Of a stretch of 64,000 nucleotides of DNA, positions 3,016 to 27,410 are shown in pieces. The translations under genes were made by a program, and so were the position numbers. The notes under the pieces were generated by a model, which did no database searches, was not told the DNA's origin, and saw only the letters and a list, made by a program, of their open reading frames with translations. Source of the DNA: Vicinamibacteria bacterium. GTDB taxonomy: Bacteria; Acidobacteriota; Vicinamibacteria; Marinacidobacterales; Marinacidobacteraceae. Numbering within the stretch: the first letter of the stretch is position 1; the number at the start of each line of letters is the position of its first letter. The DNA lies in NCBI GenBank assembly GCA_963555995.3, contig OY821641.1, positions 1,440,001-1,504,000 of the forward strand, read 5' to 3'.

Positions 3016-3943
3016 GCTTCTGCCCTTGCCCGGGCTCCGACCAGGGGCAGACCTCGATGCAGATGGCGCAGCCGTAGGTCTTGGTGAAGTAGGGAACGCA
3101 CTTGTCGAAGTCCACGTACCAGCGCTGCTCCCCCCGGATCCACTGTTTTTCCTCGTGGATCGCGTCGGGGGGGCAGTCCATCACGCAGCGGCGGCAGCGC
3201 GTGCAGACGTCGTCCACCCCGATGTCCCGCGGGGCGTCCAGCGCGAGCGGCATGTCGGTGAGGACCGCGGCGAGCCGGAAGTTGGAGCCGTGCTCGCGGC
3301 TGATCATCGAGCCGTGCTTGCCGAGTTGGCCGAGTCCCGCCCGGACCGCGAGCGGGATGTGGAGGATGTCGGTGGCGTTCGGGTCGCCATAGGCCTTGGC
3401 GGGGAAGCCCCGGCGGCGGATCGTCCTGCCGAGCCGCATGGCGATGAGGCCGATCCGGCGGTAGGTCCGCATCACCTCGGCCGCCCCGCGGGGGCGCGCC
3501 GCATGCGCCATTTCCTCCCGGACCATCGGGAGCCCGATGCAGATGGCGGTGTGGTACGGCGCCTCGCGCCCCTCGAAGACGTCCGTTTCCCGGATCTCGG
3601 CGATCCCGACGAGGCTCGCCCCCGCGGCGCGGGCGGCGCTCTTCACGAACGCGGCATTCGCCTCGGGGCCTTCGTCCACGACCCGGCGCGCCACCGGGCC
3701 CCGCTCCTTCCGCAGCTCGAACTTGTTGAGGAGCCGGTGCCGCACCACCTGCCAGGGGTTCACGCACATGAAGAAGTCGTCGAGTCCCTGCCATTCGATG
3801 GGTCGGCTCGAGTCGGCGTTGTGGAACACCTGGGTGGCCCGGCGCGGCTCGCGTTCCCCGAAGCCGTTGATCTCGTTGCCCGAGCGCGGCGGAACCCGGT
3901 AGCCGAAGGCGTACTCGGCGCGCGGGACGTCGCGGATCTTCAT
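2972..3943 (-). CDS. reductive dehalogenase/QueG-like cobalamin 4Fe-4S dicluster protein
   Basis: AGLGQLGKHG...GSNFRLAAVLTD, CxxCxxCxxxCP and C-x9-CxxCxxxCPW motifs; start chosen at MKIRD. Confidence 0.75.
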   Translation of the reverse strand: MKIRDVPRAEYAFGYRVPPRSGNEINGFGEREPRRATQVFHNADSSRPIEWQGLDDFFMCVNPWQVVRHRLLNKFELRKERGPVARRVVDEGPEANAAFVKSAARAAGASLVGIAEIRETDVFEGREAPYHTAICIGLPMVREEMAHAARPRGAAEVMRTYRRIGLIAMRLGRTIRRRGFPAKAYGDPNATDILHIPLAVRAGLGQLGKHGSMISREHGSNFRLAAVLTDMPLALDAPRDIGVDDVCTRCRRCVMDCPPDAIHEEKQWIRGEQRWYVDFDKCVPYFTKTYGCAICIEVCPWSEPGQGQKLSDLMLAKRERRRP

Positions 3944-6658: not shown

Positions 6659-9250
6659 ATGACCCTCGAAGCCCTCTGGCCGCTCCTCCTGCTGCCGCTC
6701 CTCGGCGTGGTGGTGCTGGTGGCGCTCCGCTCGGACCTCCGCTGGCCGAAGCTGCGGCTGCGCGCCTCGCTGGTGCTGCGGCTGCTCGCCGCCGCCTTCC
6801 TGCTGCTCGCGCTCTGCCGGCCGGTGGTCCGCGCCGGATCGCGGGAGGTGGCCGTGGCGTTCGTGGTGGACGTCTCCCGCAGCGTGGCCTCGGGGGCGAT
6901 GCAGGACGCGGTCGCCTGGGCCCGGGAGGCAAGCCGGGCGCTCGGCAGCGACGACGCGCACTTCGTGGCCTTCGCCGACCGCGCGGTGTCCGTGCCGGAC
7001 GCGGACGCGCTGCTGGAGGTCCAGGTCTTCGACAGCGGGGCGGCGGCGGGGCTTCCGCCTCCGGACGCGCTGGACCAGGGCCGGACGAACATCGAGGCGG
7101 CGCTTCGCCACGCCGCGGCGCGCCTCCCGCCCGACCGGCTGAAGCGGGTGGTGCTGTTCAGCGACGGCAGGGAGACGGAGGGCGATACCGCCGCGGCGCT
7201 GGCGTTCCTCAAGGAGGCGGGCGTGCGGGTCTTCCCGGCTCCGTCGGGGGTGCGGAGCGACGGCGGCGGTTTCGTGAACGCGATCCGGCTGCCGCCCGCC
7301 GTGCGGGCGGGAGAGATGACCGGGGTCGAGGCCGAGGTGTTCTCGGCGGCCGGCGGCCCGGCCGAGATCCGGGTCCTCGCCGACGGCGAGGTGCTGGCCG
7401 CCATCGAGGTCGAACTCCCGCCCGGCGCTTCGACCGTGCCGGTGCCGGTGCGCATCGAGGATCCGGGCATGACGGTCCTCGAAGCGGAGATCCGGGTGGC
7501 CGGCGACCGCCTTCCGGTCAACGACCGGCGGGCCGTCGAGGTGCCGGTGGAAGAAGAGGCGAGCGTGCTCTACGTCGAGGGGCAGCCCGAGAGCGCCCGG
7601 TACCTCAGGACGGCGCTGGAGTCCGAGGGCGTCACGGTGAACACCGCCCCGGCGTCGGCGCTTCCCCGGCTCGACCTCAACACCTGGGACGCCGTGGTGT
7701 TGAGCGACGTGGCCCCCGACCGGCTTCCCGATCCGGTGATGGAGCAGGTGGCGGCCTACGTCCGCGACGAGGGCGGGGGGCTGGTGTTCGCCGCGGGCGA
7801 GTCCAGCTACGGGGAGGACGGGTACTCGGAGTCGGTGCTCGAAGAGGCGCTGCCGGTGGACTTCCAGATCGAGGAGAAGTGGAAGGACCTGTCCCTCGTG
7901 ATCGTGCTGGACAAGTCCTACAGCATGTACGGGAGGAAGATCGCGCTGGCCAAGGAGGCCACCAAGGCCGCGCTGGATCTGCTCGAGGACACCCACCGCT
8001 TCGGCGTCGTGACCTTCGACTGGAACCCCTACACCACGATCCCCCTGCAACTGGTCACCGACCGGGAGTGGATCAAGGAGGGGATCAGCCGGATCCAGGC
8101 GAGCGCCCAGACGAACATCTATCCCGCCCTCGACCGCGCCTACGAACAGCTCATCGAGAGCCCTTCCAAGGTCAAGCACGTGATCCTGCTCTCGGACGGG
8201 AAGACCTATCCCGACGACTACGAGGAGCTCGTCATCCGGATGATGGAGGACGAGATCACCATCTCGACCGTGGCGGTGGGCGAAGAGGCCGACCGGGAAC
8301 TGCTCTCGGACATCGCCGAATGGGGCGACGGACGCAGCTACTTCATCCGGGACGCGGGACGGGTGCAGCAGATCTTCGTCGAGGAGACCCAGATCGCCCT
8401 CGACGCCACCCTGGTCGAGGAGCCGTTCCGCCCGGTGGTGCGGCAGATGGCGCGCGTGCTCGAGGGGCTGGACTTCGACGCCGCCCCGGAACTCAAGGGC
8501 TTCGTGGCGACGATGGCGAAGGACACCGCGGAGGTGCTCCTCGAAGGCCCCGACGAGGAGCCGCTCCTCGCCCGCTGGCAGTACGGGCTCGGCCGGGCGT
8601 CCATGTTCACCTCCGACTGCAAGAACCGCTGGGCCGCCGACTGGGTGGAATGGGACGGCTACGGCAAGTTCTGGACGCAGGTGGTGCGCGACGCGATGCG
8701 CCGGGGAGAGGGCGCCGATCTCGACTTCGAGGTGTCCCGGCGCGGGAACGCCGCCGACGTGCGCCTGTCGCTGATCCGCGAGGACGGCAGCTATCCCGAG
8801 GACGTGGCGCCCGAACTCGAGATCTCGTACGCCGGGCTCGTGGGCCGCACCACGATCCGGCAGACCGGCCCGGGAAGGTTCGAGGCCGAGGTGCCGCTTG
8901 ACCTGCGTCCCGGCGACACGGCGCGCTTCCGCATCGTCGGCGAGTCGCTTCCCGACGATCTCGCCGAGGGCGCCGACCTCGAGCGGGCCATCCACCTGAG
9001 CTATCCCGACGAGTACCGCTTCCTGCCGGCGGACGGCGAGGCCCTCGCGGCGCTGGCCGCGGAGACGGGCGGCGTCGTGGCGCCGACCCCGGCGCAGGTG
9101 CTCGCGACCGCCGGCGACCGGGTGGTGCGCTCGCGCGCCCTGTGGCCGCTGCTCGCGCTGCTGGGCCTGATCGCCTACCTGCTCGACCTCTCGGTCCGCC
9201 GCGTCCCCTGGCTCTGGACGCGGATCGGCCGGCAGTTGCGGCCCGCCTGA
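6659..9250 (+). CDS. membrane-anchored VWA domain protein with GATase-like domain
   Basis: Two MIDAS motifs (DVSRS, DKSYS), FSDG/LSDG, WQYGLGR; N- and C-terminal TM segments. Confidence 0.8.
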   Translation: MTLEALWPLLLLPLLGVVVLVALRSDLRWPKLRLRASLVLRLLAAAFLLLALCRPVVRAGSREVAVAFVVDVSRSVASGAMQDAVAWAREASRALGSDDAHFVAFADRAVSVPDADALLEVQVFDSGAAAGLPPPDALDQGRTNIEAALRHAAARLPPDRLKRVVLFSDGRETEGDTAAALAFLKEAGVRVFPAPSGVRSDGGGFVNAIRLPPAVRAGEMTGVEAEVFSAAGGPAEIRVLADGEVLAAIEVELPPGASTVPVPVRIEDPGMTVLEAEIRVAGDRLPVNDRRAVEVPVEEEASVLYVEGQPESARYLRTALESEGVTVNTAPASALPRLDLNTWDAVVLSDVAPDRLPDPVMEQVAAYVRDEGGGLVFAAGESSYGEDGYSESVLEEALPVDFQIEEKWKDLSLVIVLDKSYSMYGRKIALAKEATKAALDLLEDTHRFGVVTFDWNPYTTIPLQLVTDREWIKEGISRIQASAQTNIYPALDRAYEQLIESPSKVKHVILLSDGKTYPDDYEELVIRMMEDEITISTVAVGEEADRELLSDIAEWGDGRSYFIRDAGRVQQIFVEETQIALDATLVEEPFRPVVRQMARVLEGLDFDAAPELKGFVATMAKDTAEVLLEGPDEEPLLARWQYGLGRASMFTSDCKNRWAADWVEWDGYGKFWTQVVRDAMRRGEGADLDFEVSRRGNAADVRLSLIREDGSYPEDVAPELEISYAGLVGRTTIRQTGPGRFEAEVPLDLRPGDTARFRIVGESLPDDLAEGADLERAIHLSYPDEYRFLPADGEALAALAAETGGVVAPTPAQVLATAGDRVVRSRALWPLLALLGLIAYLLDLSVRRVPWLWTRIGRQLRPA

Positions 9251-12994: not shown

Positions 12995-15631
12995 ATGTCA
13001 GACGCCTCCGTACCCTTGTCCCAGGTGGACCCGAATCGGGCTGTCGCCTGGGCCAAGGTCCGCGAGGAAGCCGACGGCGGAGTTCGGCGTCTCAGCCTCA
13101 CGGACCACTCGGTGGACGTGGCGGCAATGGCGGAGGCCCTGCTGCGTTCCCCAACGCTGGGAGCGCGACTCGGACGGCTCGCGGGCCGGCCGCTGACCGA
13201 GGTGGACATCGCCCGATTCAGTTTTTTCGCTGGGCTCCATGATGTCGGCAAGGCCGTCCATCCCTTCCAGCGGCGGCTGCGCGACGGGTCGCGGGCCTCC
13301 CACACGGCGCCGGTCTGGGTCCTGTTCGGCTCCGGCAGCTTTCCCTCGGAAACGAGCCAACGGGTCGCCGCCTCGCTAGGGCGAGAGCGCTGGCGTACGT
13401 GGTTCGCCGCGGCGGACGACCAGAAGGCTCTCTGGGATGTCGTGCTGGCGCACCACGGCAGCCTTCCGGCAGATCCCGCGCCCCCGAGACCGGCCGACTG
13501 GGACGCGGATGCGCTTACCGGCTACGCCCCCCTCGCCGCCGTCGCGGAGGTGGTCCAGACGCTTGAAGCCATGTTTCCCGAGGCATTCAGCGGAGCCGAA
13601 ACGCCGTTGCCCGCGTCTCCGCGCTTCCTCCACGCGCTGGCCGGACTCATCGTCCTCGCCGACTGGCTTGGTTCGGACGAACAGCGTTTTCGTTTTCCGG
13701 TGGATGACGCTCCGGAAGGAAGAGCCAGGATCGACTGGTCGCGCGGAACGGCGGCGAAGTCTGCCCGCGCGCGGTGGTTCGACCTGTCCTCGACGCGCGA
13801 GCAGGCCGACCGGCTGCGCCTCGATTTCGGGGCGCTGTTCCCGGAGTTGGCGGACCCCCGCCCGGCACAGCAAGCCGTCCTTGATGCTCCCGAACCGCGC
13901 ACGGGCCAAGTAGTCGTCCTCGAAGCGGAGACGGGGTCCGGGAAGACGGAAGCCGCGCTGATCCATTTCCTGCGCCTGTTTCGGCTTGCCGAGGTGGACG
14001 GGCTGTACTTTGCCCTCCCGACGCGCGCGGCCGCCGTCCAGATTCATCGTCGCATCTCGGAGACGGTGCGGCGCTGGTTCGGCGAGACCGCACCCCCGGT
14101 GACGCTCGCGGTTCCGGGTTATCTGCGAGTGGACGATCAGAAAGGGCGGGCGCTCCCGGATGGCTGGCGCGTCCTTTGGGACGACGAGCGCACGCGCGAG
14201 CGGGGATGGGCAGCGGAGAACGCGAAGCGCTATCTGTCCGGCGCGATCGTCGTGGGGACGATAGACCAGGCGCTGCTGGGAGGGCTCCGGATCCGACACG
14301 CGCAGCTTCGCTCGGGACCGATGTTGCGGCTACTGCTGGTTGTGGACGAGGTGCACGCCTCGGACGCCTACATGACGACCCTTCTGCGGAACCTCCTCGA
14401 CCAGCACACGGCCAGCGGCAGCCATGCCCTGTTGATGTCGGCCACCCTGGGTGCCTCGGCTCGGGAACGGCTGTTGCAGCCGGCCCTTGCCCGGGTTCCC
14501 ACCCCAGCGCTGGAAGAAGTCCAGAAGTCCGCGTATCCGTCCATGCAGCGGAGTGGCGAGCGCCTCCGTCCGCTCGCGGCTGACGGCCGGTCCAGGCGGA
14601 TTGCGGTCGAGCTCTCCGATCCTGCATCGGACGAAGACTCCCTCTTCGCCAGGCTCCGGGACGCCGCCGCGTCCGGTGCGGTGGTCCTCTTCATCCGCAA
14701 CCGCGTCAGGGACGCCCAGCAGGCGGTTCTTCGGCTGGAAGCAATGGGGACGGCCCTGTTCCGTTGCCGCAATGTAGCTGCGCCCCATCACGGGCGCTTC
14801 GCACCCGAAGATCGGACGCTTCTCGATGAGTCTCTCGAACGGGCGCTCGGAAAGGGAAGGGAGCGACGGGGGGTCGTGGCGGTAGCGACCCAGACCGCCG
14901 AACAGTCTCTCGACATCTGCGCCGATTGGCTGGTGACCGACATCGCGCCAGGCGATGTGCTCCTGCAGCGCATCGGACGCCTTCATCGCCACCCCGAGAA
15001 TCCGCGCCCCGCCGGGTACGCCGAACCACTGGTCAGCGTCCTTGCACCCTCGGAGCAGAGTCTCGAGAGTCTCCTGAGGCCAGACGGACGGCTTCGACGG
15101 ACGAAGCTGCCGCTCGGCCTCGGATGGGTGTACGACAACCTGGTAGCCGTGCTCGCGACCCGCCGATGGCTCGCCGAGCGCGGCGAGGTCCGCGTCCCCC
15201 GCGACAATCGAGATCTCGTCGAGCACGTGACTCACGACGAAGCACTCCGGGCCTTGACCGAGTCGCTGGGCGGCGCGTGGCCCGCATATCTGGACGCCGT
15301 GCGGATGGGCAGGGCAGTGGAAGGCGGGGCGGCGCTCCCGGTGATGATCCGCTGGGACGAACCACTGGTGGACAATCAGAAGATCACGGAGTTGGCGGCT
15401 CCGACGCGACTCGGGCTTCGGGACCGCCGGGTGATGCTTCCCGATGCCTGCGAAGGCCCTTTCGGATCACCCGTGCGGACACTGAACCTGCCGGAGTGGA
15501 TGATCGAGCCGGACGTGGGGGACGACGCCCGGCCCGAAAACGTGATCGCCTCCGCCGGGACGATCCGGTTCCGGTTCGGCGGGTCGTCGTTCGTCTATGA
15601 CCGCCTGGGGCTGAGAAAGGGCAATGCGTGA
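12995..15631 (+). CDS. cas3: CRISPR-associated HD nuclease/helicase Cas3 (type I-E)
   Basis: LTDHSVDVA, HDVGK, AETGSGKT, DEVH, SAT and QRIGRLHR motifs. Confidence 0.95.
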   Translation: MSDASVPLSQVDPNRAVAWAKVREEADGGVRRLSLTDHSVDVAAMAEALLRSPTLGARLGRLAGRPLTEVDIARFSFFAGLHDVGKAVHPFQRRLRDGSRASHTAPVWVLFGSGSFPSETSQRVAASLGRERWRTWFAAADDQKALWDVVLAHHGSLPADPAPPRPADWDADALTGYAPLAAVAEVVQTLEAMFPEAFSGAETPLPASPRFLHALAGLIVLADWLGSDEQRFRFPVDDAPEGRARIDWSRGTAAKSARARWFDLSSTREQADRLRLDFGALFPELADPRPAQQAVLDAPEPRTGQVVVLEAETGSGKTEAALIHFLRLFRLAEVDGLYFALPTRAAAVQIHRRISETVRRWFGETAPPVTLAVPGYLRVDDQKGRALPDGWRVLWDDERTRERGWAAENAKRYLSGAIVVGTIDQALLGGLRIRHAQLRSGPMLRLLLVVDEVHASDAYMTTLLRNLLDQHTASGSHALLMSATLGASARERLLQPALARVPTPALEEVQKSAYPSMQRSGERLRPLAADGRSRRIAVELSDPASDEDSLFARLRDAAASGAVVLFIRNRVRDAQQAVLRLEAMGTALFRCRNVAAPHHGRFAPEDRTLLDESLERALGKGRERRGVVAVATQTAEQSLDICADWLVTDIAPGDVLLQRIGRLHRHPENPRPAGYAEPLVSVLAPSEQSLESLLRPDGRLRRTKLPLGLGWVYDNLVAVLATRRWLAERGEVRVPRDNRDLVEHVTHDEALRALTESLGGAWPAYLDAVRMGRAVEGGAALPVMIRWDEPLVDNQKITELAAPTRLGLRDRRVMLPDACEGPFGSPVRTLNLPEWMIEPDVGDDARPENVIASAGTIRFRFGGSSFVYDRLGLRKGNA

Positions 15632-15637
15632 GTCAGG

Positions 15638-15714
15638 CCGAAGACCCCGCGAATGCGGGGGAATTCTCCGCTCCAAGAAAGCAGAGGGTCCATCCCCGAA
15701 GGATCGGGGCTATG
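15638..15714 (-). ncRNA. CRISPR mini-array (two pseudo-repeats plus short guide), CreR/CreA-like regulatory RNA
   Basis: Minus strand CATAGCCCCGATCCTTCGGGGATGGACC - C TCTGCTTTCTTGGAGCGGAG - AATTCCCCCGCATTCGCGGGGTCTTCGG; both 6-bp stems intact; 19/28 and 17/28 identity to the array repeat. Confidence 0.8.
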
Positions 15715-15740
15715 GAAGGAACCATCCGAGGACACGGAAA

Positions 15741-15801
15741 TTCCATGTACCGTCACAGAGTTTATACACTCTAATAATGCAGAATTTGCACTCACCGACA
15801 A
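15741..15801. promoter_or_regulatory. AT-rich candidate divergent promoters (cas8e and mini-array) carrying a guide target
   Basis: Plus strand TTCCAT-18 bp-TACACT; minus strand TTGTCG-16 bp-CATTAT; protospacer-like match at 15764-15783 with AAT PAM. Confidence 0.55.
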
Positions 15802-15871
15802 GAACGTCCACAATCCCGGATCTCGCCGCCGCGGCACTGGCCTCGGATCGCGTGCGAGAGGGGAGTTGAAC

Positions 15872-17416
15872 ATGAGGAACCTGTTGAGGGACGGGATCAT
15901 CCCCGTGCGCACCGGCCGCGCCGCGGACCGGGTCTCGTTGCCGGAGCTCTACGTCCGGTTGGCGGCGGATGAGGTGGACGCCTTTCCGGGACTTGCAGCC
16001 CACCAGTCGCCGGCGTGGTTCGAATTCCTGGCGCAGCTCGGAGCCCTCGCGGCACTCCACCGGGGCTCCGGCATCCCTCTCCACGACGCGGAAGCGTGGA
16101 GCCGGGTCCTCGCGGAACTCGCCGGCGACGCCGGTGCTTCGGCGTGGAACCTGGTCGGGGACGAGCCGGCGCAGCCGGCTTTCCTCCAGCCCCCGACGTT
16201 CCGGTTCGGCGAATACAGGCGGTTCGCAACAACCCCGGATGGCCTCGACCTTCTGGTGACCGCCAAGAACCACGACCGGAAACAGGCGCAGGCGGTCGGT
16301 GGAGACCCGCACCTCTGGCTCTACGCCCTCGTCAACCTGCAGACCCAACAGGGCTATTCGGGCCGAGGCCAGCCCGGCGTGGCCCGCATGAACGGAGGTT
16401 TCGCGAGCCGGGTGCTGGTGGACCGGCGCCCGAACGACCGTTGGGGAGCTCGGGTGGAACGCGCGATCCGGATGTTGGTCGCGCGGCGCGACGACGTGTT
16501 CCACAGCGTGGACGAAGCGGTGTACCGGGCTGAAGGCGGTTTGGCGCTCACCTGGCTCCGGGACTGGGACGAGGACCGGATGCTGACGCTTTCCGAACTG
16601 GATCCGTACTTCATCGAAGTGTGCCGCCGCGTGCGGCTCGTTCCGACCGACGAGGGCGCCGTCGAGGCCCGGGTTCGACCCGCGATGAAGCCCCGGACCG
16701 ACGCGAAGGCATTCCTCGGGAATCTCGGAGACCCGTGGGTCCCGCTGGATCTGCGCAAATCGCCGCCCACCGCCCTGACCGTGGGCGCGGGCGGCTTCGA
16801 CTATCGCCTGATGCAACGCATCCTGTTCCGTTCCGGCGAAACTCGGAAACCCTTGGCGTTCAAGGCCCTTCCGGGCGAATCCGGCAAAAACGCGGAAGTG
16901 CACTTCGCGGCCCTCGTCCGTGGGCAGGGGAAAACCGAGGGTTTCCACGAGCGCGTCATTCCCCTGCCGGCCGCGGTGGCGCTCCAGTTCGAGCGTGACG
17001 TGGACCAGGATGACGAAACGTCGCTCGAACAGCTCTCCGAACGCATGGTGGCCCACGCTGGAAGCGTGCGGAAGGTGCTGCGCCAGGCGGTGACGGTGTA
17101 CCTCCAGGGCCCGGAAAACCCGAACTTCAAGAAACCCGATGCCGCCTCCGTCGTCACCGGCTTCGACCGAAGGACCGATGAAGAGTTCTTCAAGCACCTG
17201 TTCGCGGCCCCCGAAGCGGGTTACACGCCATCCGAGCTGAAGTGGCAGCGATTCCTGAAGAACACCGCGGTCGAACTTGCCCGCGATGCCTGGAACCGGC
17301 TCTCCCCACCAAGCGCCCGTCGCGAAAAGGCGCAGTACGTCTCCGAAGTGGTGTTGTTCCGGGGCCTGCGCAAACAGCTACCGGACGCCTTCCCGAAAGC
17401 CGATCCCGCAAAGTGA
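15872..17416 (+). CDS. cas8e: Cascade large subunit Cas8e (Cse1/CasA)
   Basis: PAFLQPP, LDLLVTAKNHD, RMNGG and DPYFIEVCRR; position after cas3; ATG after GGGAG. Confidence 0.85.
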   Translation: MRNLLRDGIIPVRTGRAADRVSLPELYVRLAADEVDAFPGLAAHQSPAWFEFLAQLGALAALHRGSGIPLHDAEAWSRVLAELAGDAGASAWNLVGDEPAQPAFLQPPTFRFGEYRRFATTPDGLDLLVTAKNHDRKQAQAVGGDPHLWLYALVNLQTQQGYSGRGQPGVARMNGGFASRVLVDRRPNDRWGARVERAIRMLVARRDDVFHSVDEAVYRAEGGLALTWLRDWDEDRMLTLSELDPYFIEVCRRVRLVPTDEGAVEARVRPAMKPRTDAKAFLGNLGDPWVPLDLRKSPPTALTVGAGGFDYRLMQRILFRSGETRKPLAFKALPGESGKNAEVHFAALVRGQGKTEGFHERVIPLPAAVALQFERDVDQDDETSLEQLSERMVAHAGSVRKVLRQAVTVYLQGPENPNFKKPDAASVVTGFDRRTDEEFFKHLFAAPEAGYTPSELKWQRFLKNTAVELARDAWNRLSPPSARREKAQYVSEVVLFRGLRKQLPDAFPKADPAK

Positions 17417-17424
17417 GAAGAACC

Positions 17425-17970
17425 ATGGCTGAACAACAAGCAAACGGCAGCGAGCCGGTCCGTCTGGGCCAGTTGCTCGGCCGCCTGTCGCACCAACTCC
17501 ATGCCGGCCGCATCGGAGCCGGGTCGCTGGCGGAACTGCGCCGGATGACCCGCTCCAACCGGCCGCCTGCCTTCTGGAAGCTCTACCTCCAGATCGTGCC
17601 CGATGTCTGGCGGGAACCCGGGGGACGCCCGGACGTGCGCGTGGACGACGCCTGGGCCGCCATCATCCGGGGCATGGCCGAAATGGCGCCCGACGCACTG
17701 GCCTTCGGCCGGTCGTTCGGAGCCGAATTGTCCCGAGCCGGGTATTCCGAGAGCCGCTTCGTCCGCCTGCTGCGCGCAGACCACGCGGACCTCGCCCGCG
17801 AGTTTCGGGTCGCGGCCGGATGGCTCGGGGCGAAGGGAGCGAAGGCGAACCTGACACCGGTGGCCGAACTGCTTCTGGGCCGCCCCTACGTCGGTCTCGA
17901 CGTCAGGCCGGACTACGCCGCCCGCACGCTTGCCCACGACTTCTTCCGCGCCGAGACGACGCGGACCTGA
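17425..17970 (+). CDS. cse2: Cascade small subunit Cse2 (CasB/Cas11)
   Basis: LAELRR and YSESRFVRLLRA; position between cas8e and cas7. Confidence 0.85.
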   Translation: MAEQQANGSEPVRLGQLLGRLSHQLHAGRIGAGSLAELRRMTRSNRPPAFWKLYLQIVPDVWREPGGRPDVRVDDAWAAIIRGMAEMAPDALAFGRSFGAELSRAGYSESRFVRLLRADHADLAREFRVAAGWLGAKGAKANLTPVAELLLGRPYVGLDVRPDYAARTLAHDFFRAETTRT

Positions 17971-17998
17971 TCCCGTTCCACTCAAGGAGGAAACATCC

Positions 17999-19180
17999 AT
18001 GACACCTCGATTCCTGCAGATCCACACCCTTACCGGTTATGCGGCAACGCTGCTGAACCGCGATGACATCGGCAAGGCGAAGCGCCTGCCCTTCGGGGGC
18101 GCGGAGCGAATCCGGGTCTCCTCGCAGTGCCTAAAGCGCCACTGGCGGGAGGCGACCGGGGAATGGTCGCTCCGTGATCTCGGCAGCGGCAAGTCGCAGC
18201 GTTCCCGCCGACTCTTCAGCCAGGTGATCGCAGAGCGGCTGCGGAAGGAGGGGATGAAGGACGACGCCATCGTGACCGTCCTGACGCCGGTCCGATCCGC
18301 CGTACTCGGCGAGAGCATCAAGGCCCGGGAAACCCGCAAGGCGCGGAAGGCAGGCGACGAGCCCGCCAATCCGCTCGACGAGCTCCGGACCGAACAGGTG
18401 ATCGTCCTGGGAGAACCGGAGATCGGGTTCCTGACGCGACTCGCGCAGGACCTGCATCGCGACAGCGCCGACGAGACCGCGAAGGCCGTGGCGAGCTATT
18501 TCAAGGACAAGGAGACCCGGGGCAACCTCGCCGCCCTCCGGCAGGAGGTCGGGATGGGCATTGACGCCGCCCTCTTCGGACGGATGGTCACCTCCGACGT
18601 GATGGCCCGATCCGATGCGGCCGTCCACGTTTCCCACAGCTTCACGGTGCACCGGGAGAACGCGGAACCGGACTATTTCTCCGCGCTCGACGACCTCGTG
18701 ACGGAGGAAGGAGAACTCGGATCGGGGCACATCAACACCAGCGAGCTGACGAGCGGACTCTTCTACTCGTACGTGGTGGTGGATCTCCCGCATCTGACTT
18801 CCAACCTCTCCGGCGATGCCGAACTCGCCGCGAACGTGCTGCGCCGCCTGCTCCACCTGATCGCGACCGTTTCCCCGGGGGCCAAGCGGGGAGCCACCGC
18901 ACCGTACGCGTGCGCCGAGCTCATGGTCGCGGAGATCGGTTCCCGGCAGCCGCGAACCCTGGCGAACGCGTTCATGAAGCCGGTCCCGCAGGGAAAGGCG
19001 GATGTCAAGGCGGACGCCGCCCGGGCGCTGGATGGCTACCTGGAGCGCTACGACGCGATGTACGGCGCCCACGAAGAGCGGCGTTTCGCGACCATGATCG
19101 AACCCGGTCCCGCCCATTCCGGCGAACGGGTGAATCTGGCCGCGCTGGCGGACTGGGCGGCGGCCCGGGTCGCGGAGTAG
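17999..19180 (+). CDS. cas7: Cas7 (Cse4/CasC)
   Basis: LNRDDIGKAKR, RVSSQCLKR, DAALFGRM and DYFSALDDL; SD AAGGAGG. Confidence 0.95.
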   Translation: MTPRFLQIHTLTGYAATLLNRDDIGKAKRLPFGGAERIRVSSQCLKRHWREATGEWSLRDLGSGKSQRSRRLFSQVIAERLRKEGMKDDAIVTVLTPVRSAVLGESIKARETRKARKAGDEPANPLDELRTEQVIVLGEPEIGFLTRLAQDLHRDSADETAKAVASYFKDKETRGNLAALRQEVGMGIDAALFGRMVTSDVMARSDAAVHVSHSFTVHRENAEPDYFSALDDLVTEEGELGSGHINTSELTSGLFYSYVVVDLPHLTSNLSGDAELAANVLRRLLHLIATVSPGAKRGATAPYACAELMVAEIGSRQPRTLANAFMKPVPQGKADVKADAARALDGYLERYDAMYGAHEERRFATMIEPGPAHSGERVNLAALADWAAARVAE

Positions 19181-19184
19181 CGGC

Positions 19185-19964
19185 GTGGACGTCCTGCTGC
19201 TCAGCCTGCAGGCGCCGCTGATGAGCTTCGGCGGCCCGCAGGTGGACCAGGTCGGGCCGACCGGGCGGTTCCCCACGGTCAGCCAGATGGCCGGGCTCTT
19301 CGCGAATGCCCTTGGATATACACACGCCGACCATCGGCGCTTGCAGGTCCTCCAGGACCGCATTGCGCTGGCCGCCGCACTGGTCCGCGAGGGAGAGGAA
19401 CGGGAGGACTACCAGACGGTGGACCTCGGACAGCCGCATTTGGCGAAACCCTCCTGGACGACGCACGGTCGGCGCGAACACCGGGCCGGCGGTCCCGACG
19501 CCAGACTTGGGACGCACATCCGCTTCCGCCGTTACCGCGCCGATGCGCGGGTGCTCGCGGCGGTTGCGCTCGATCCTCCCGAGCCCGGGCCGGGTGTGGA
19601 AGAGATCGCGGCGGCGCTCGACAATCCCTGCCGCCCGCTCTTTCTGGGGCGCAAGAACTGCCTTCCGGCCGATCGCCTGGTTTTCGGCCTCTGCTCCGGC
19701 GTCCCGAATCTGACCGACGCGATTTCCCGAGCGCGCCGGAACTTCCCTGATCGTTGGACCGCCGCGTTCGGAGCGCCGGCGATCACCGAGGTCACCGCCG
19801 AGTGGCCCATCACGGAGCAGGATGTCGCGGTGGGGAGCCGGTCGGAAACGCATCGCGTCGTGGACCGGCGAGACTGGCGCAACCAGCTTCACGGCGGCGA
19901 GCGGGTGGTGGGACGCGGCGCGCTGCCGCTGGACGAGGCCGAACCCTCAGGAGGACCGGCATGA
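19185..19964 (+). CDS. cas5: Cas5e (CasD)
   Basis: LQAPLMSFG, FPTVS, DYQTV and PLFLGRKNC. Confidence 0.95.
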   Translation: MDVLLLSLQAPLMSFGGPQVDQVGPTGRFPTVSQMAGLFANALGYTHADHRRLQVLQDRIALAAALVREGEEREDYQTVDLGQPHLAKPSWTTHGRREHRAGGPDARLGTHIRFRRYRADARVLAAVALDPPEPGPGVEEIAAALDNPCRPLFLGRKNCLPADRLVFGLCSGVPNLTDAISRARRNFPDRWTAAFGAPAITEVTAEWPITEQDVAVGSRSETHRVVDRRDWRNQLHGGERVVGRGALPLDEAEPSGGPA

Positions 19965-20827
19965 CCCAGGTGTATCTCGTTCAAACTTCGTTGCGTCTTC
20001 GGTCGTTCACGAAGTGGGCGCTGGAGAGGCGCTTTCTCAGCGTGCCTCCCGGCGACGGCCGCGGGCGTCCTCGGGAACCCGATCTCGGGTATGCGCTGCA
20101 TGCCGCACTCACCGGCCTGTTCGGAGAGCAGGCGCCGAGACCGTTCACTCTTCTCCCGGAGGGAGGCGAGCGTCATGGTTGGTGCCTCGGGGGGCGCGAC
20201 AGGGACGTCGTTCCGGTACTCGGCTACGCCAAGGTGGATCAGGAGCAACTCGCGGGCCTGGCAGGACTGGCCCGTGAGGATTTCCGGGAGATCTTCGATT
20301 GCGACGCGCTGCGGGTGAAACCCCTCCCGGCGACCTGGCCGGACGGGATGCGACTCGGATTCGAGTTGCGCGCGTGCCCGGTACGGCGACGGCTGGCAAA
20401 GCGTCCGTTCACCACGAACACGTCCGGTCCGGCCCACAGGCAGGTGCTGTACTCGCAGCGCGGCCGGGAAGTGGACGCCTACCAGTTGGCGACGGCCCGG
20501 GCCGCGGAGCGCGGAGATCCGGTCCCGCGGCGTGACGAGGTGTACGCGGCCTGGCTCGGCGAGCGGTTCGCGGGATCACCGGATCGCCCTCGGGCGTTTT
20601 CTCTCGTGTCCGGGTCACTGCGGGTGCAATCCTTTCGCTCGACCCGTCTGCTCCGGCGGCCACATGACGGTAACGGGCGCTCCGCGCGCTGGCTGACGCG
20701 GCCCGAGGTCTGGTTTTCGGGCCAGATCGAAGTCGCAGCCGGCGGCAGAGTGGCGGAGTCGCTCCTGACCGGTGTCGGCCGGCACAGCGGTTTCGGATTC
20801 GGGATGTTGCTCCTCCGCCCCGCCTGA
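19961..20827 (+). CDS. cas6e: Cas6e (Cse3/CasE), 288 aa
   Basis: YALH motif; C-terminal G-rich loop GVGRHSGFGFGMLLL; ATGA overlap with cas5. Confidence 0.9.
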   Translation: MTQVYLVQTSLRLRSFTKWALERRFLSVPPGDGRGRPREPDLGYALHAALTGLFGEQAPRPFTLLPEGGERHGWCLGGRDRDVVPVLGYAKVDQEQLAGLAGLAREDFREIFDCDALRVKPLPATWPDGMRLGFELRACPVRRRLAKRPFTTNTSGPAHRQVLYSQRGREVDAYQLATARAAERGDPVPRRDEVYAAWLGERFAGSPDRPRAFSLVSGSLRVQSFRSTRLLRRPHDGNGRSARWLTRPEVWFSGQIEVAAGGRVAESLLTGVGRHSGFGFGMLLLRPA

Positions 20828-20851
20828 CGGGGCGCCGGGATTCCGCGCGCG

Positions 20852-21736
20852 GTGGTGCTCGAAGGCCGGCTCGGGCTGGATACGGCCCGGATTCCCCATG
20901 CGGACCGGCACGGCCTGATGTGGCTGTCGCGAGGCAACCTCTGGGTGGAGGCCGGGACGTTGAGGTTCCGCGCGGCGAAAGGCCCGATCCTGGAGGCGGG
21001 CGACTACGCAATTCCGTTCCAGATGGTTTCGGTGCTGCTCCTCGGGCCGGGCAGCACCGTGAGTCACGATGCCTTGCGACTGTGCGCCCGCCACGGCACC
21101 GGAATCATCGCGGTGGGAGATGACGGCGTTCGCGCGTACACCGCTCCGCCCTTCGGCCCCGACGAGTCCGCGATCGCGCGGAAGCAGGTACGCCTCTGGT
21201 CCGACGAGGACAACCGGATCCGGACCGCCCGACGCATGTACGCCTGGCGCCTGGGAGAAGTGCTGCCGCACCGGGATCTGAACGCCCTGCGAGGCATCGA
21301 GGGCGCACGGATGCGGGCTCTCTACAAAACCGTGGCGATGCAGCACGGCATCCGGTGGGAAGGCCGCCGCTACAAACGCGATGTCCCGGACTGGGCGGAC
21401 CTGCCGAACCAGGCGATCAACCACGCCGCCACCGCCGTGGAGGCGGCAGCGACGATTGCGGTGGCGAGCCTCGGGGCGCTGCCACAGTTGGGCTTCATCC
21501 ACGAGGACTCCGGGATCGCGTTCGTTCTCGACGTCGCCGACCTGTATCGCGGCGAAGTGACTCTGCCGGTGGCCTTTGCAGCGGTGAAGGAATACGAGCG
21601 GAATCCGAAGATCGAACTGGAGCGGGTCGTGCGCAAGCGGGCGGGCAAGGAAATGCGCCGACGGAAACTCATCCCTCACATGATCGACAGGATCAAGGAG
21701 CTCTTCGATGGCGATGTGCGTGATCGTGACCCGTGA
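20852..21736 (+). CDS. cas1: Cas1 (type I-E)
   Basis: LLGPGSTVSHDA, LRGIEGARMR, LGFIHE and FVLDVADLY. Confidence 0.95.
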   Translation: MVLEGRLGLDTARIPHADRHGLMWLSRGNLWVEAGTLRFRAAKGPILEAGDYAIPFQMVSVLLLGPGSTVSHDALRLCARHGTGIIAVGDDGVRAYTAPPFGPDESAIARKQVRLWSDEDNRIRTARRMYAWRLGEVLPHRDLNALRGIEGARMRALYKTVAMQHGIRWEGRRYKRDVPDWADLPNQAINHAATAVEAAATIAVASLGALPQLGFIHEDSGIAFVLDVADLYRGEVTLPVAFAAVKEYERNPKIELERVVRKRAGKEMRRRKLIPHMIDRIKELFDGDVRDRDP

Positions 21737-22067
21737 CGTGCCGGCGCGTTTCCGCGGGTTCTTGGCGTCCTGCATGTTGGAGATAGCTCCGGGGGTCTAT
21801 ACGCAGCCCGACATGTCGGCGGCGGTGCGCGAACGGGTCTGGAAGGTTCTGCGGGACTGGTGGATTCACTACACGCAGGGCTCCGTGGTGATGACCTGGG
21901 CCAGTCCGGCGGCGGATGAGCGCCAGCAGGTGCTGACCCTCGGGGAGCCCGCCAAGGAACTGATCGAATACGAAGGCATGTACGTGGTTCGGCGGGAGGA
22001 AAGCGAGCAGACCCCGGAATCTGGGCGAGAGTCAACTCGGTACGGTCCAAGAAGGCAGAACCGTTAG
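21708..22067 (+). CDS. cas2: Cas2 (type I-E)
   Basis: RFRGFLASCMLEIAPGVY and VRERVW; start 21708 or 21714; probably non-conserved C-terminal tail. Confidence 0.9.
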   Translation: MAMCVIVTRDVPARFRGFLASCMLEIAPGVYTQPDMSAAVRERVWKVLRDWWIHYTQGSVVMTWASPAADERQQVLTLGEPAKELIEYEGMYVVRREESEQTPESGRESTRYGPRRQNR

Positions 22068-22146: not shown

Positions 22147-25100
22147 GCTTCCCCCGCACACGCGGGGATGGACCTCAACCAGGTCCACGCCGACCACCGT
22201 CCGAAAGGCTTCCCCCGCACACGCGGGGATGGACCGCAGGTCGGCGGCTCGTTCGTCCAGGTTCGACCGCTTCCCCCGCACACGCGGGGATGGACCCTCC
22301 TCCGCCGAGCCCGACTCCCGGACGAGCTGGCTTCCCCCGCACACGCGGGGATGGACCCCTCGAGACCCGCATCTATCCGATCACGATCGAGCTTCCCCCG
22401 CACACGCGGGGATGGACCCGCGCCGACGGGCTCCGCCGCACGAGCCCCGCCGCTTCCCCCGCACACGCGGGGATGGACCGAGCGCCGTCGCCGCCCAGGT
22501 GGCCGCCGGACTGCTTCCCCCGCACACGCGGGGATGGACCGCAGGCCGGCCTCCTGGCGGAGCTGAACATCGAGCTTCCCCCGCACACGCGGGGATGGAC
22601 CCGTAACCCCGGCCCCCCTGACAATTCCCTTTAGGCTTCCCCCGCACACGCGGGGATGGACCCGAGTCAGTAGCGATGATGAAGCCGGCCGTACGGCTTC
22701 CCCCGCACACGCGGGGATGGACCCATGCTCCGCAGTGCCAAACAGAAACGACCGCGGCTTCCCCCGCACACGCGGGGATGGACCGCGTGAGACCAGCTCT
22801 GGCCGAATACCCGCGCTGCTTCCCCCGCACACGCGGGGATGGACCCGTCATCGAGAGGCGTCGAGAGCGGGATCCGGTGCTTCCCCCGCACACGCGGGGA
22901 TGGACCGATCGCCTCCCAGGCCTGCTGGGTGAGGATGAAGCTTCCCCCGCACACGCGGGGATGGACCCCACCAGGAGCTGTCCCGCCATGCGATGTTCCA
23001 GCTTCCCCCGCACACGCGGGGATGGACCTTATGGGCGCTCCCGGATTTTTGGACCGATCGTGCTTCCCCCGCACACGCGGGGATGGACCGCCTGGGCGGG
23101 GACGATCCTCCCGATTGACGACGCTTCCCCCGCACACGCGGGGATGGACCCTGAACCGGGTGCTCGACCTGCTGGACTCGAAGGCTTCCCCCGCACACGC
23201 GGGGATGGACCCTGGGCGAGCTCGCGCCAGAGCGCGCCCCCGGCGCTTCCCCCGCACACGCGGGGATGGACCGTTCCCGTTCCGGACGTAGATGTCCACG
23301 ATGAAGCTTCCCCCGCACACGCGGGGATGGACCCCACCGCGAGGCGCGCGCCCGGCGCGATGTAGAGCTTCCCCCGCACACGCGGGGATGGACCGTCGTT
23401 TCACACGGCGCTGTTGCAGGCCTCCTCGCTTCCCCCGCACACGCGGGGATGGACCCGCGACCTGGACGTTCGCCAGGACGGGCCGGCCGCTTCCCCCGCA
23501 CACGCGGGGATGGACCGTCCACGAGCTCCACCGCTCGACCGGCCTTCCTGCTTCCCCCGCACACGCGGGGATGGACCGCAGCAACACGGCCCGAAGTAAT
23601 ACCAGCCTGGGCTTCCCCCGCACACGCGGGGATGGACCCAGCGCCGCCAGCATCAGCCCCGTGTCGAGCGCGCTTCCCCCGCACACGCGGGGATGGACCG
23701 TCGACGGGCGATCAGTACCCCCCCGATGCCGAGCTTCCCCCGCACACGCGGGGATGGACCGCCCGCCGACCACCTGGCGCCGGCTCCGATACAGCTTCCC
23801 CCGCACACGCGGGGATGGACCTCGCGGAGGTTGATGCCCTGGGCGGGCTGGGAGGCTTCCCCCGCACACGCGGGGATGGACCCCATGTATTGGGCGGATC
23901 GGTCGGCGCATAGGCGCTTCCCCCGCACACGCGGGGATGGACCCTCGACCTCCCCGTAATCCGCGAGCGCATCATCGCTTCCCCCGCACACGCGGGGATG
24001 GACCCACGTCGATCTCATCCGCGCCATCCGTTGCCGGGCTTCCCCCGCACACGCGGGGATGGACCGCCCAAGATCAACCCCAGAATTAAGCAGGTTCTGC
24101 TTCCCCCGCACACGCGGGGATGGACCCTAGCCACCGGCTACCCACCTAACCCGGCGAGCGCTTCCCCCGCACACGCGGGGATGGACCTCAGCCTGATTCC
24201 GCGAGCATACGGGGTAGCTCGCTTCCCCCGCACACGCGGGGATGGACCCATCCGATACAGGTCGAGCGGCCGGTCCGCCGCGCTTCCCCCGCACACGCGG
24301 GGATGGACCGGTCTCGCGCCGCAGCCGCCGCCGCTCCTGGAGGCTTCCCCCGCACACGCGGGGATGGACCCTGGGCTCCAAGGTCAACGAGCTCTACCGG
24401 CGGGCTTCCCCCGCACACGCGGGGATGGACCGGCACCCGGCCATTGCGGTCGCCATCAGGATTTGCTTCCCCCGCACACGCGGGGATGGACCCGTGGCCT
24501 CGTCCAGGAACCGGAGCCCGCGATCGCTTCCCCCGCACACGCGGGGATGGACCCGCCTTGATCTCATCCCCCCATAGCACCCACGCGCTTCCCCCGCACA
24601 CGCGGGGATGGACCGCAGCGTGTCGTCGACCATGACGCCCGTTTTCGGCTTCCCCCGCACACGCGGGGATGGACCCCCCGCCAGCTCCTGGGCGGACGAA
24701 CTGTGGACGCTTCCCCCGCACACGCGGGGATGGACCCCCGTCGCGGCATTGGCTCCTGTTGGCAATCCTGCTTCCCCCGCACACGCGGGGATGGACCGGT
24801 TTCGTCCTCGTTGGCGTTGACCGAAGGGAGGCTTCCCCCGCACACGCGGGGATGGACCCCGGGCGCCCGGGCCGCCCACCGAATACTCGATGCTTCCCCC
24901 GCACACGCGGGGATGGACCTGAGGGTGGCGCCGGCGCCGGCGGCCTTGCGCAGCTTCCCCCGCACACGCGGGGATGGACCCTACCGGAACCTGGTCGCCG
25001 GCGCCGCGGAGGCGCTTCCCCCGCACACGCGGGGATGGATCCTCAGGGGGTGCGCCCAGTGATCGGGCAGCTCAGCTTCCCCCGCACACGCGGGGATGGA

Positions 25101-26199
25101 CCTCCGCCTTCATGCTCCAGGACGTGAGCGATAGCGCTTCCCCCGCACACGCGGGGATGGACCTGAGCCCCATGTTCACGACCTACGCCCTGGCCGGCTT
25201 CCCCCGCACACGCGGGGATGGACCTGAGCCCCATGTTCACGACCTACGCCCTGGCCGGCTTCCCCCGCACACGCGGGGATGGACCCCTCACTGCCGGCCA
25301 GATGTCGCTCCCGAATCCGCTTCCCCCGCACACGCGGGGATGGACCCGAAGCTGTGGGCGTGTTGTCGGTTCCGTACGAGCTTCCCCCGCACACGCGGGG
25401 ATGGACCCTTCGGGGCGACGATGGAATAGTTAGCCGCCGCGCTTCCCCCGCACACGCGGGGATGGACCCACCTCCGGGAGACCCGCAACGATGCGGCCAC
25501 CGCTTCCCCCGCACACGCGGGGATGGACCCCACCGGGGTAGCGTGCCGCCAGCTCGGGCGCGGCTTCCCCCGCACACGCGGGGATGGACCCAAGTTCTCA
25601 TGGATCGGATCGGCTACGCGGTGGCTTCCCCCGCACACGCGGGGATGGACCGCTGCCCGGGTCGTGATCCGGGTCACCGCCGAGGCTTCCCCCGCACACG
25701 CGGGGATGGACCCATCCTCGTCTGCTCATCGCAGGCGCTGGAACGGCTTCCCCCGCACACGCGGGGATGGACCGTACATGGCCGAAGCGCGGAAGGATCT
25801 CGGCGGGCTTCCCCCGCACACGCGGGGATGGACCGCAGACAGGACCGTAGCGGGAGCCGTCGACGTCGCTTCCCCCGCACACGCGGGGATGGACCGCTGG
25901 AACGGTGCGCCCTGGCGGACGAGTTCGCGCTTCCCCCGCACACGCGGGGATGGACCCGGATTACCGATCCGGACCAGTGGATATACGGAGCTTCCCCCGC
26001 ACACGCGGGGATGGACCCCCTCCGGGCAGGCGGATCTGTCCGCCGCCCTGGCTTCCCCCGCACAAGCGGGGATGGACCGAGCGCCTCCAGCCGCAGGGTG
26101 CGGCCTTCCAGGCTTCCCCCGCACACGCGGGGATGGACCCCGGATCGGGAGCGTCGTGGTCTGGCTCGGATCGCTTCCCCGCACACGCGGGGATGGACC
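22147..26199 (+). CRISPR. type I-E CRISPR array, 67 repeats and 66 spacers
   Basis: 28-bp repeat GCTTCCCCCGCACACGCGGGGATGGACC with exact 61-bp period; variants at 25014 (GGATC) and 26051 (ACAA loop); terminal copy at 26173 lacks one C. Confidence 0.99.
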
Positions 26200-26217: not shown

Positions 26218-26487
26218 TGTCAATGGGCGCCGAAAATGTCCCACTTTTGGGCTTCGAAAATGTCCCACTTTTCTGGTGGGCTGGGGGTTGTGGAACGGGT
26301 CCGATGAGGGGAGTTCTGGCCGGGCGTCCGCCGCGGATCTCCGCTCACTCCGCTCCCGATGCTGACTCGCTCCGCGGCAACCCCGCTGAACCCCTCCCCC
26401 TGAACTCCCCCCAAAACTCCGTCTCCAACCCAAAAGGTGTCAAGTTTTCAGATCCCATTTCTGTCCACTTTTCTAATCCCATTGACA
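26218..26487. mobile_element. 270-bp non-autonomous IS21-like element (MITE)
   Basis: TGTCAATGGG...CCCATTGACA ends; tandem 24-bp subterminal repeats containing GAAAATGTCCCACTTTT; no transposase; no target duplication. Confidence 0.75.
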
Positions 26488-27167
26488 GCTTGACTCCCGC
26501 CAGCTCCGGCCCAATCGCGGATCGCGGTGCGACTGCCGTTGAGACAGTGCAGCACGATCTCGGCAGCGGCCCGGGCATCCTCCCCGGCGTCGTGATGCCG
26601 GAAGCGAATGCCGAGCCGATCCGCGATCGGCGCCAGGCCGCGCGAGCCGCGCGGAAACCGACCCGGCCACACGAGATTCGGAATGCGGGAGCTGTCGAGC
26701 CAAGCTCGCTGAAACGTCGGCAGGCGGTTCCGGCGACAGGCTTGGAGGAGTGCCGCCACATCGAAACCGGTGTGCGTGACCACGAACTCCGGCAAGCGTC
26801 TTTCGAGTTCGGAGTGGAGTTGGGCGAAGGGGGGAGCGTTCGCCACCGCCTCGCTCGTGATCCCGTGGATCCGGATGTGACGGCGGCTGAATCGTCCCGC
26901 GGGACGGACGAACTGGGTCCACACCTGCGTGACCCGGCCTGCTCGCACCGTGGCGATACCGATTTGGCAAATGCTGGTCGGGTCTGGGTTTGCCGTTTCG
27001 ACATCGAGTGCGGCGAAATCAACCTGTTCGCTGGGTGTTGCCGGAACATGCGAGTCGGGAGTGTGATCGGACCGGTGTCGCCGCGAGTCACGCGATGACG
27101 GCGTGTCTGGAGCCGACGTTCCTCCTCGACCGTGTGGTGTTTCCCGCGCTGGACGGTGAGTCTCCAT
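26448..27167 (-). CDS. DEDDh 3'-5' exonuclease (DnaQ/epsilon-like), possibly truncated
   Basis: ExoI LDVETAN, ExoII HTGFD, ExoIII HHDAGED; stop codon lies inside the MITE; start uncertain. Confidence 0.75.
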   Translation of the reverse strand: METHRPARETPHGRGGTSAPDTPSSRDSRRHRSDHTPDSHVPATPSEQVDFAALDVETANPDPTSICQIGIATVRAGRVTQVWTQFVRPAGRFSRRHIRIHGITSEAVANAPPFAQLHSELERRLPEFVVTHTGFDVAALLQACRRNRLPTFQRAWLDSSRIPNLVWPGRFPRGSRGLAPIADRLGIRFRHHDAGEDARAAAEIVLHCLNGSRTAIRDWAGAGGSQAVNGIRKVDRNGI

Positions 27168-27410
27168 GGGGCAGGGCTCGTCAGCCGCGAGACCGCCGTG
27201 ACAGAGGAGGTGGCTCACCCGCAGCCGCGAGGCTCGCGAGATAGAAGCCGACAGAGGTGGTAGTCGCCGCCAGCAGGGCCAGGAGGAGCGCGATCAGGGT
27301 CATGCGGGCATGTTGACGGCGCGTTGCGCCAAAAACGGACACCCCTTTTGCCCCGTGCGGCGGTGCGTTCGGATGGGTCGGGTCGCCTTCGTAGCTGTAG
27401 GGCGTTCCGG

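Follow-up and report, generated by a model that had tools for sequence, protein, structure and literature searches.

In Salmonella enterica, the type I-E regulatory RNA CreR represses P-casA, and in E. coli the repression by Salmonella CreR was relieved when crRNAs or anti-CRISPRs drew Cascade away (10.1101/2023.03.10.532045). Previous studies have also reported that mini-arrays lie between cas3 and cas8 in about 19% of bacterial I-E loci, and that an I-F1 mini-array gave no cleavage (10.1101/2023.03.03.530964 = PMC10120712). Phage Cracr RNAs are short-spacer (21-24 nt) I-E guides against cas promoters, described as two- and three-spacer arrays (10.1101/2024.10.29.618823). These descriptions follow the available portions of the three reports. 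In the present study, we analyzed a 64,000-nt stretch of DNA (the window) containing a complete type I-E locus, in which the 240-nt gap between cas3 and cas8e holds an antisense mini-array whose nearer repeat lies 7 nt past the end of cas3. The mini-array is an addition to the published CreR/mini-array class, whose kind, position, orientation and target class are already in print for I-E in the portions of those reports available. The sequence evidence indicated that its guide very probably steers the locus's own Cascade to the predicted cas8e promoter and represses the Cascade operon in a CreR-type loop.

Comparison with described regulators

Like the Salmonella CreR described in the available text, the window element is a degenerate two-repeat mini-CRISPR in which the first repeat (R1) supplies the 5' handle and the second (R2) the 3' part. 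In both, the guide partly matches a site that lies upstream of casA/cas8e and is flanked by AAN, and no toxin gene was seen with either. The match in Salmonella runs over 15 consecutive positions, whereas that in the window is broken at 6, 9, 12, 16, 18 and 20; Salmonella has the PAM AAG and a site about 140 bp upstream of casA, and the window has AAT and a site 85 nt upstream. The two guide sequences are presumably unrelated. Unlike Salmonella CreR, the window element belongs to an uncultured, high-GC host and has a self-paired guide. Repression has been demonstrated for Salmonella CreR and is predicted from sequence for the window. The I-E and I-F1 mini-arrays (crlRNAs), as far as described in the accessible text, share with the window their position, their orientation antisense to cas3, a decayed distal repeat, a short spacer, mismatches at 6 and 12, and a target that lies next to a PAM in the promoter region of cas8. 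They were validated for I-F1 only, and the main text of PMC10120712 does not contain the string 'Acidobacteri'.

CreA of CreTA also uses a crRNA-like guide to make Cascade a repressor, as proposed here. CreTA differs from the window in its toxin: no CreT-like toxin was seen in the window, and small-ORF candidates were present only in three related loci (L009, L010 and L011). Within 15632-15871, no toxin gene was seen by eye and no Rfam match came near the cut-off, a search by which diverse RNA toxins could be missed. With no sign of a toxin gene in the window, the element resembles CreR more than CreA. In L009, a long hairpin and a 14-codon ORF with a strong ribosome-binding site were found between the target and cas8e (about 7700-7990). 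L011 carried a small ORF with a like ribosome-binding site just upstream of cas8e (8001), and L010, which lacks an array, carried a 4-codon ORF with an ATA codon upstream of cas8e (8001). These small ORFs, identified by eye, are possible CreT-like toxins or remnants, and they raise the possibility that CreTA-like forms also occur in the clade.

The Cracr RNAs share with the window element the use of short I-E guides against cas promoters; however, they are viral mimics, whereas the window element is chromosomal and lies between cas3 and cas8e. It is thus neither virus- or plasmid-encoded nor outside the cas operon, as Cracr and Racr elements are. A scan of viral contigs for the handle plus seed gave seven hits; none was a mimic, since agreement with the guide stopped at the 8 seed letters used in the search. 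Several viral contigs carried I-E elements of their own. A five-repeat, four-spacer I-E mini-array with 20-21 nt spacers stood behind a TTGACA box on contig IMGVR_UViG_2900074995_000003 (L064:625-880) and looks like a Cracr array. I-E mini-arrays were also observed on L068, L069 and L070, with 19-20-nt and 30-33-nt spacers (three 20-nt spacers in L069). Three small viral contigs (L047, L050 and L051) each had, near position 601, a hairpin and a TATACT box followed by a single I-E-like handle; these are possible solitary repeat units.

The mini-array, its target and the predicted promoter

The features of the locus are collected in Table 1. The locus lies on a 3.8-Mb contig in a 3.8-Mb genome of 70% GC, in which no second Cas7e gene was found. 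The array spacers gave no full-length self-match to this genome (best 28/32). Two successive spacers at 25136-25257 are identical, and a DEDDh exonuclease gene (26448-27218, minus strand) adjoins the array.

Table 1. Features of the type I-E locus and its antisense mini-array, in window coordinates.
Feature	Position	Strand	Basis or remark
cas3 (HD nuclease + helicase)	12995..15631	+	TIGR01587 and TIGR01596 above cut-off
Pseudo-repeat 2 (R2), 6-bp stem	15638..15665	-	Repeat comparison
3' handle, 21 nt, within R2	15645..15665	-	Predicted
Predicted mature regulatory RNA, 49 nt (8 + 20 + 21)	15645..15693	-	Deduced from the Cas6e cut rule
Guide, 20 nt (= 32 minus 12)	15666..15685	-	Four Cas7 predicted
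5' handle, 8 nt: 7 repeat bases + C at 15686	15686..15693	-	Predicted
Pseudo-repeat 1 (R1), stem 15709-15694, 5' handle intact	15687..15714	-	Repeat comparison
Mini-array -10 candidate TATAAA, weak, no good -35	15761..15766	-	Sister locus has TAGAAT at a like place
Guide target, 14/20	15764..15783	-	Mismatches 6, 9, 12, 16, 18, 20
Putative PAM AAT	15784..15786	-	AAT in 4, AAC in 2 of 6 matched loci
cas8e -35 candidate TTGCAC, first base = last PAM base	15786..15791	+	Predicted; L002 and X4 allele
cas8e -10 candidate CACAAT, 17 nt from -35	15809..15814	+	Predicted; unchanged in X4 allele
cas8e	15872..17416	+	TIGR02547 E 1.4e-15, below cut-off; PF09481
cse2, cas7, cas5, cas6e, cas1, cas2	17422..22067	+	Profile search; cas6e below cut-off, E 1.6e-07
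CRISPR array, 67 repeats of 28 nt, 33-nt spacing	22147..26199	+	66 by core motif and one variant

All coordinates that the sequence-only reading had assigned to the mini-array were reproduced, base for base. R1 was identical to the array repeat at 19/28 positions, including the last 12 nt, and its stem (CCCCGA/TCGGGG) carried the described change of the sixth pair from C-G to A-U. R2 was identical at 17/28 positions and had kept the stem and lost the handle, and C plus the 20-nt guide lay between the two. R1 and R2 each fold with a 6-bp stem. Cas6e cleaves repeat RNA at the 3' foot of the stem; since such a cut is expected at both stems, a 49-nt product is predicted. The locus thus holds two degenerate repeats outside the array, next to a complete Cascade operon, with the 5' handle in the first repeat and the 3'-handle stem in the second. 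The mini-array region folded far better than its shuffles (z -3.36). A search of Rfam gave four weak matches, all far under the cut-off. R1 alone was not beyond chance, since 10 places in the window outside the array reached at least 18/28 and one other reached 19.

The match between guide and target, claimed at 14/20 behind an AAT, was found exactly as described, at a site 65 nt upstream of the mini-array. We scored pairing over positions 1-17 minus 6 and 12, a rule that was set after the alignments had been seen and was then applied in the same way to all loci. Under this rule, the window's guide paired at 13/15 positions, which was reached by 0/5000 dinucleotide shuffles of the region. The target was the sole 13/15 site among 160,413 AA[CGT]-flanked sites in the 3.8-Mb genome. 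No further target at 13/15 with AAN was found genome-wide, and the one site at 13/15 with AGC had a broken seed. Among the 65 array spacers, the -1 base was C in 35, G in 22, T in 8 and A in 0. The guide therefore matches a PAM-flanked site of its own locus in part, anchored by the seed, and more closely than chance would give. The likeness of R1 to the repeat is ordinary; the guide/target pairing is what stands out.

It had further been claimed that the target overlaps candidate -10 boxes on both strands, and this was only partly borne out. A strict promoter scan of the region returned no promoter. A loose scan placed a candidate sense -10 within the target (CCGTCA-17-AATAAT, 8 of 12), and the antisense TATAAA reaches into the target at its far end. 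The sense candidates of the window scored 7-8 of 12, and CCGTCA-17-AATAAT scored as well as the candidate in Table 1. The relatives, however, favor a -35 that starts in the PAM. In the closest relative (L002), TTGACA-17-AACAAT stood at the same PAM offsets, with the 17 letters between the boxes diverged from those of the window. In L002, L005, L009 and L011, the target coincided with a predicted sense promoter of sigma-70 type (9-10 of 12). It covered the -35 and the spacer of this predicted promoter in L005, L009 and L011, and it lay downstream of a predicted one in L008. The likely cas8e promoter thus has its -35 at the PAM and its -10 outside the target. Because the predicted -35 begins in the PAM, Cascade would sit on it by its PAM end, and the PAM-adjacent -35 is more likely to be the occluded cas8e element than the -10 in the target.

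A second allele of the region was found in run X4, one of four runs searched as contigs of a single study that possibly includes the source of the window. This alternative version of 15682-15836, represented by one contig at a depth of 3.1 from one study, differed by 20 substitutions and 5 gap letters. Within the target there were three substitutions, which correspond to guide positions 6, 9 and 12 (P 0.018); two of them (6 and 9) would create a match to the guide. There were no changes in the 14 paired target positions (P 0.027), the R1 stem or the handle. The contig spans guide positions 1-4 only, and the rest was deduced from a flanking contig common to the two alleles, the depths of which add up to its own. 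In this allele, the -35 becomes a TTGAC-type hexamer, with the -10 and the 17-nt spacing kept. Its PAM ends in A, which occurred at 0/65 spacers here and at 5/344 repeat-following bases in relatives. The minor strain of X4 differed from the window at 82/676 letters in cas3 (14261-14936) and at about 20% in the promoter bubble. It was seemingly identical over 14907-15711, mini-array included, which may reflect recombination.

Guide and target in related loci

We compared 11 loci of one clade, defined by Cas8e proteins at least 50% alike and by the presence of upstream DNA; L006 (Cas8e 90%) was left out, its contig having no upstream DNA. An antisense mini-array was present in 7/11 loci (the window, L002, L005, L007, L008, L009 and L011). 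The other four had none, and the array is therefore dispensable; three of these four have short gaps of 57-163 nt. In 5/7 array loci, the guide matched a site of the same locus, preceded by AAT or AAC, at 13-14/15, which was reached by 0/5000 shuffles in each case. The five guides had only 4-11/15 letters in common, and each fitted its own site; guides of related loci cross-scored up to 12-13/15. The sequence-only reading had named guide/target covariation in related I-E loci as a check, and such covariation was observed. With four loci set against the window, and with target sites aligned by their PAMs and taken to be homologous on that basis, 26 positions that had changed on both sides still paired, and 5 broke. 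Whether through co-evolution or through separate fitting of each guide to its site, this comparison shows selection for pairing.

It was observed that the five loci agreed on where pairing is absent. Positions 6, 12 and 18, which had been described as not paired by Cascade, matched in 0/5, 1/5 and 0/5 loci, respectively, position 9 matched in 2/5, and every other position through 19 matched in 3-5/5. Each locus had one or two additional mismatches, at 4, 5 or 9. The seven guides measured 20, 20, 20, 20, 32, 32 and 33 nt, lengths that are consistent with one Cas7 for every 6 nt of guide, as given in the available part of PMC5159557. The two remaining array loci departed from this pattern. In L002, ungapped pairing was limited to positions 1-8 and 10 (8/15; 431/5000 shuffles), and one bulged guide base gave 14 matches. 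In L007, no target was found in its 17.5-kb locus (best 10/15). The Cas8e proteins of L007 and L009 are near-identical, and the guide of L007 is 12 nt shorter (20 versus 32 nt) and lies between short AGCT repeats. The stretch that would hold the target is gone from L007, as compared with L009.

In all, 41 upstream regions were scanned, of which 37 were used after removal of three duplicates (L032, L033 and L035) and L016, which had only 56 nt. They contained seven antisense arrays, all in the close clade, and one sense array (L039), under patterns that were tuned to the repeat type of the window and may miss other types. Searches of the family, the class and two orders gave no extra clade members, and a metagenome scan gave one distant locus only, without an intergenic gap. 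No antisense handle was found in three loci from a plasmid collection and five later loci. In L039, which belongs to another I-E clade, a sense-strand mini-array lies directly before cas8e (3038-3119, minus). Its 32-nt guide matches a site just past the cas3 stop (3447-3478, minus), behind AGT, at 19 of the first 22 positions, and the mismatches fall exactly at 6, 12 and 18. By this match, L039 is predicted to carry a regulator of this kind in a different layout.

Proposed mechanism, rival explanations and the self-paired guide

Three lines of evidence, namely the unique target, the joint change of guide and target, and the X4 allele sparing the paired positions, support the proposal that Cascade would repress its own operon. 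In this mechanism, a minus-strand transcript would begin near 15755, and Cas6e would cut at the foot of both stems and free the 49-nt RNA. A short Cascade with four Cas7 would then assemble; its Cas8e would read the AAT, and the seed would pair with the plus strand. The bound complex would cover the predicted -35 and probably, at its far end, the mini-array's own -10. When array crRNAs or anti-CRISPR proteins divert Cascade, the promoter would reopen. The earlier idea that a short R-loop keeps Cas3 off required a qualification. According to the available part of PMC5159557, fully matched shortened crRNAs in E. coli, 20-nt ones included, retain some interference and priming; length alone is thus no guarantee. 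The window's mismatches at 9, 16 and 20 are for this reason probably required, and together with the short R-loop they would prevent cutting by Cas3.

The main job of the RNA might instead resemble that of CreA, silencing a toxin or small-ORF transcript or the mini-array promoter rather than cas8e, which we consider unlikely. The target lay at a nearly fixed 65-76 nt from R1 in the six matched loci, with its distance to the cas8e start varying over 24-292 nt, and the antisense TATAAA of the window overlaps the far end of the target. By eye, the interval from target to cas8e contained a small ORF preceded by a strong ribosome-binding site in both L009 and L011, and the 4-codon ORF of L010 stood behind AAAGGAGG. 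The H. hispanica CreA is also reported, in the available text, to repress two divergent promoters from one site (10.1101/2023.03.10.532045). However, from the predicted sense promoter of the window to cas8e, the sole ribosome-binding site seen by eye was that of cas8e. The ATG of the antisense leader had no ribosome-binding site and was missing in L002 (both by eye), and the best antisense promoter of L011 fell outside the target.

Alternatively, the element might be the relic of a decaying former regulator or array fragment whose match is now inert, as suggested by its absence from 4/11 loci, the loss of the target in L007 and the seed-only match in L002; this is very unlikely, since the guide, stems and handle of L002 are far better kept than the surrounding DNA, the X4 allele spares all 14 paired target positions, and the stems are preserved across relatives through paired changes. 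Least probable of all is an RNA without a target, acting as a Racr-like decoy for Cas6e/Cas7 or as inverted repeats that structure or terminate the cas3 transcript, which would suit the strong folding of the region and the self-paired guide but leaves the PAM-flanked, 6-periodic, guide-following match in five loci unexplained, and no plus-strand terminator was found in the region.

One property of the guide needs separate consideration. Together with base 15686 (-1), the guide pairs with itself in a 9-bp stem that covers the seed (-9.4 kcal/mol). The seed is predicted to be 93% paired when the RNA is free, and all 61 array crRNAs compared had a more open seed. This buried seed could hinder loading into Cascade, which would count against the autorepression reading. 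The hairpin was noticed after the fact. Five of the six target-mismatched letters sit in the stem, and with the paired letters held fixed, the stem gave P values of 0.004-0.048 under three nulls. L002 retained it, with a double change from C-G to U-A at the outer pair (-1:20; P about 0.003-0.006). Self-pairing in four other loci gave Fisher P values of 0.005-0.057, with L005 showing none. Overall, the fold is conserved in the sister locus, weakly present in three related loci and missing from the others. Ordinary spacers showed no such bias (7/223 at P <=0.05). Self-pairing as a general trait of I-E mini-arrays was supported neither by the viral mini-array guides, 1/12 of which fell below P 0.05 (Fisher 0.16), nor by the L039 guide (P 0.80).

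We tentatively suggest a self-locked guide, in which the target-free letters (6, 12, 16, 18, 20 and -1) were selected to close the stem over the seed, although this is rather doubtful. If it holds, the RNA would be a deliberately weak competitor that is loaded only when Cascade is in surplus over the array crRNAs, and it would set the threshold of the loop. No comparable self-locked regulatory guide was found in the literature searched, which left subscription journals largely outside.

Collectively, these results would extend RNA-guided autorepression by Cascade to a Cas8e clade in genomes titled Acidobacteriota and Alphaproteobacteria. The natural series of guides and targets suggests what a guide that represses and does not cut may tolerate: positions 6, 12 and 18 free, a further mismatch or two among positions 4, 5 and 9, and a length of either 20 or 32-33 nt. 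Together with the self-paired guide, this series bears on how the set-point of the loop may be tuned.
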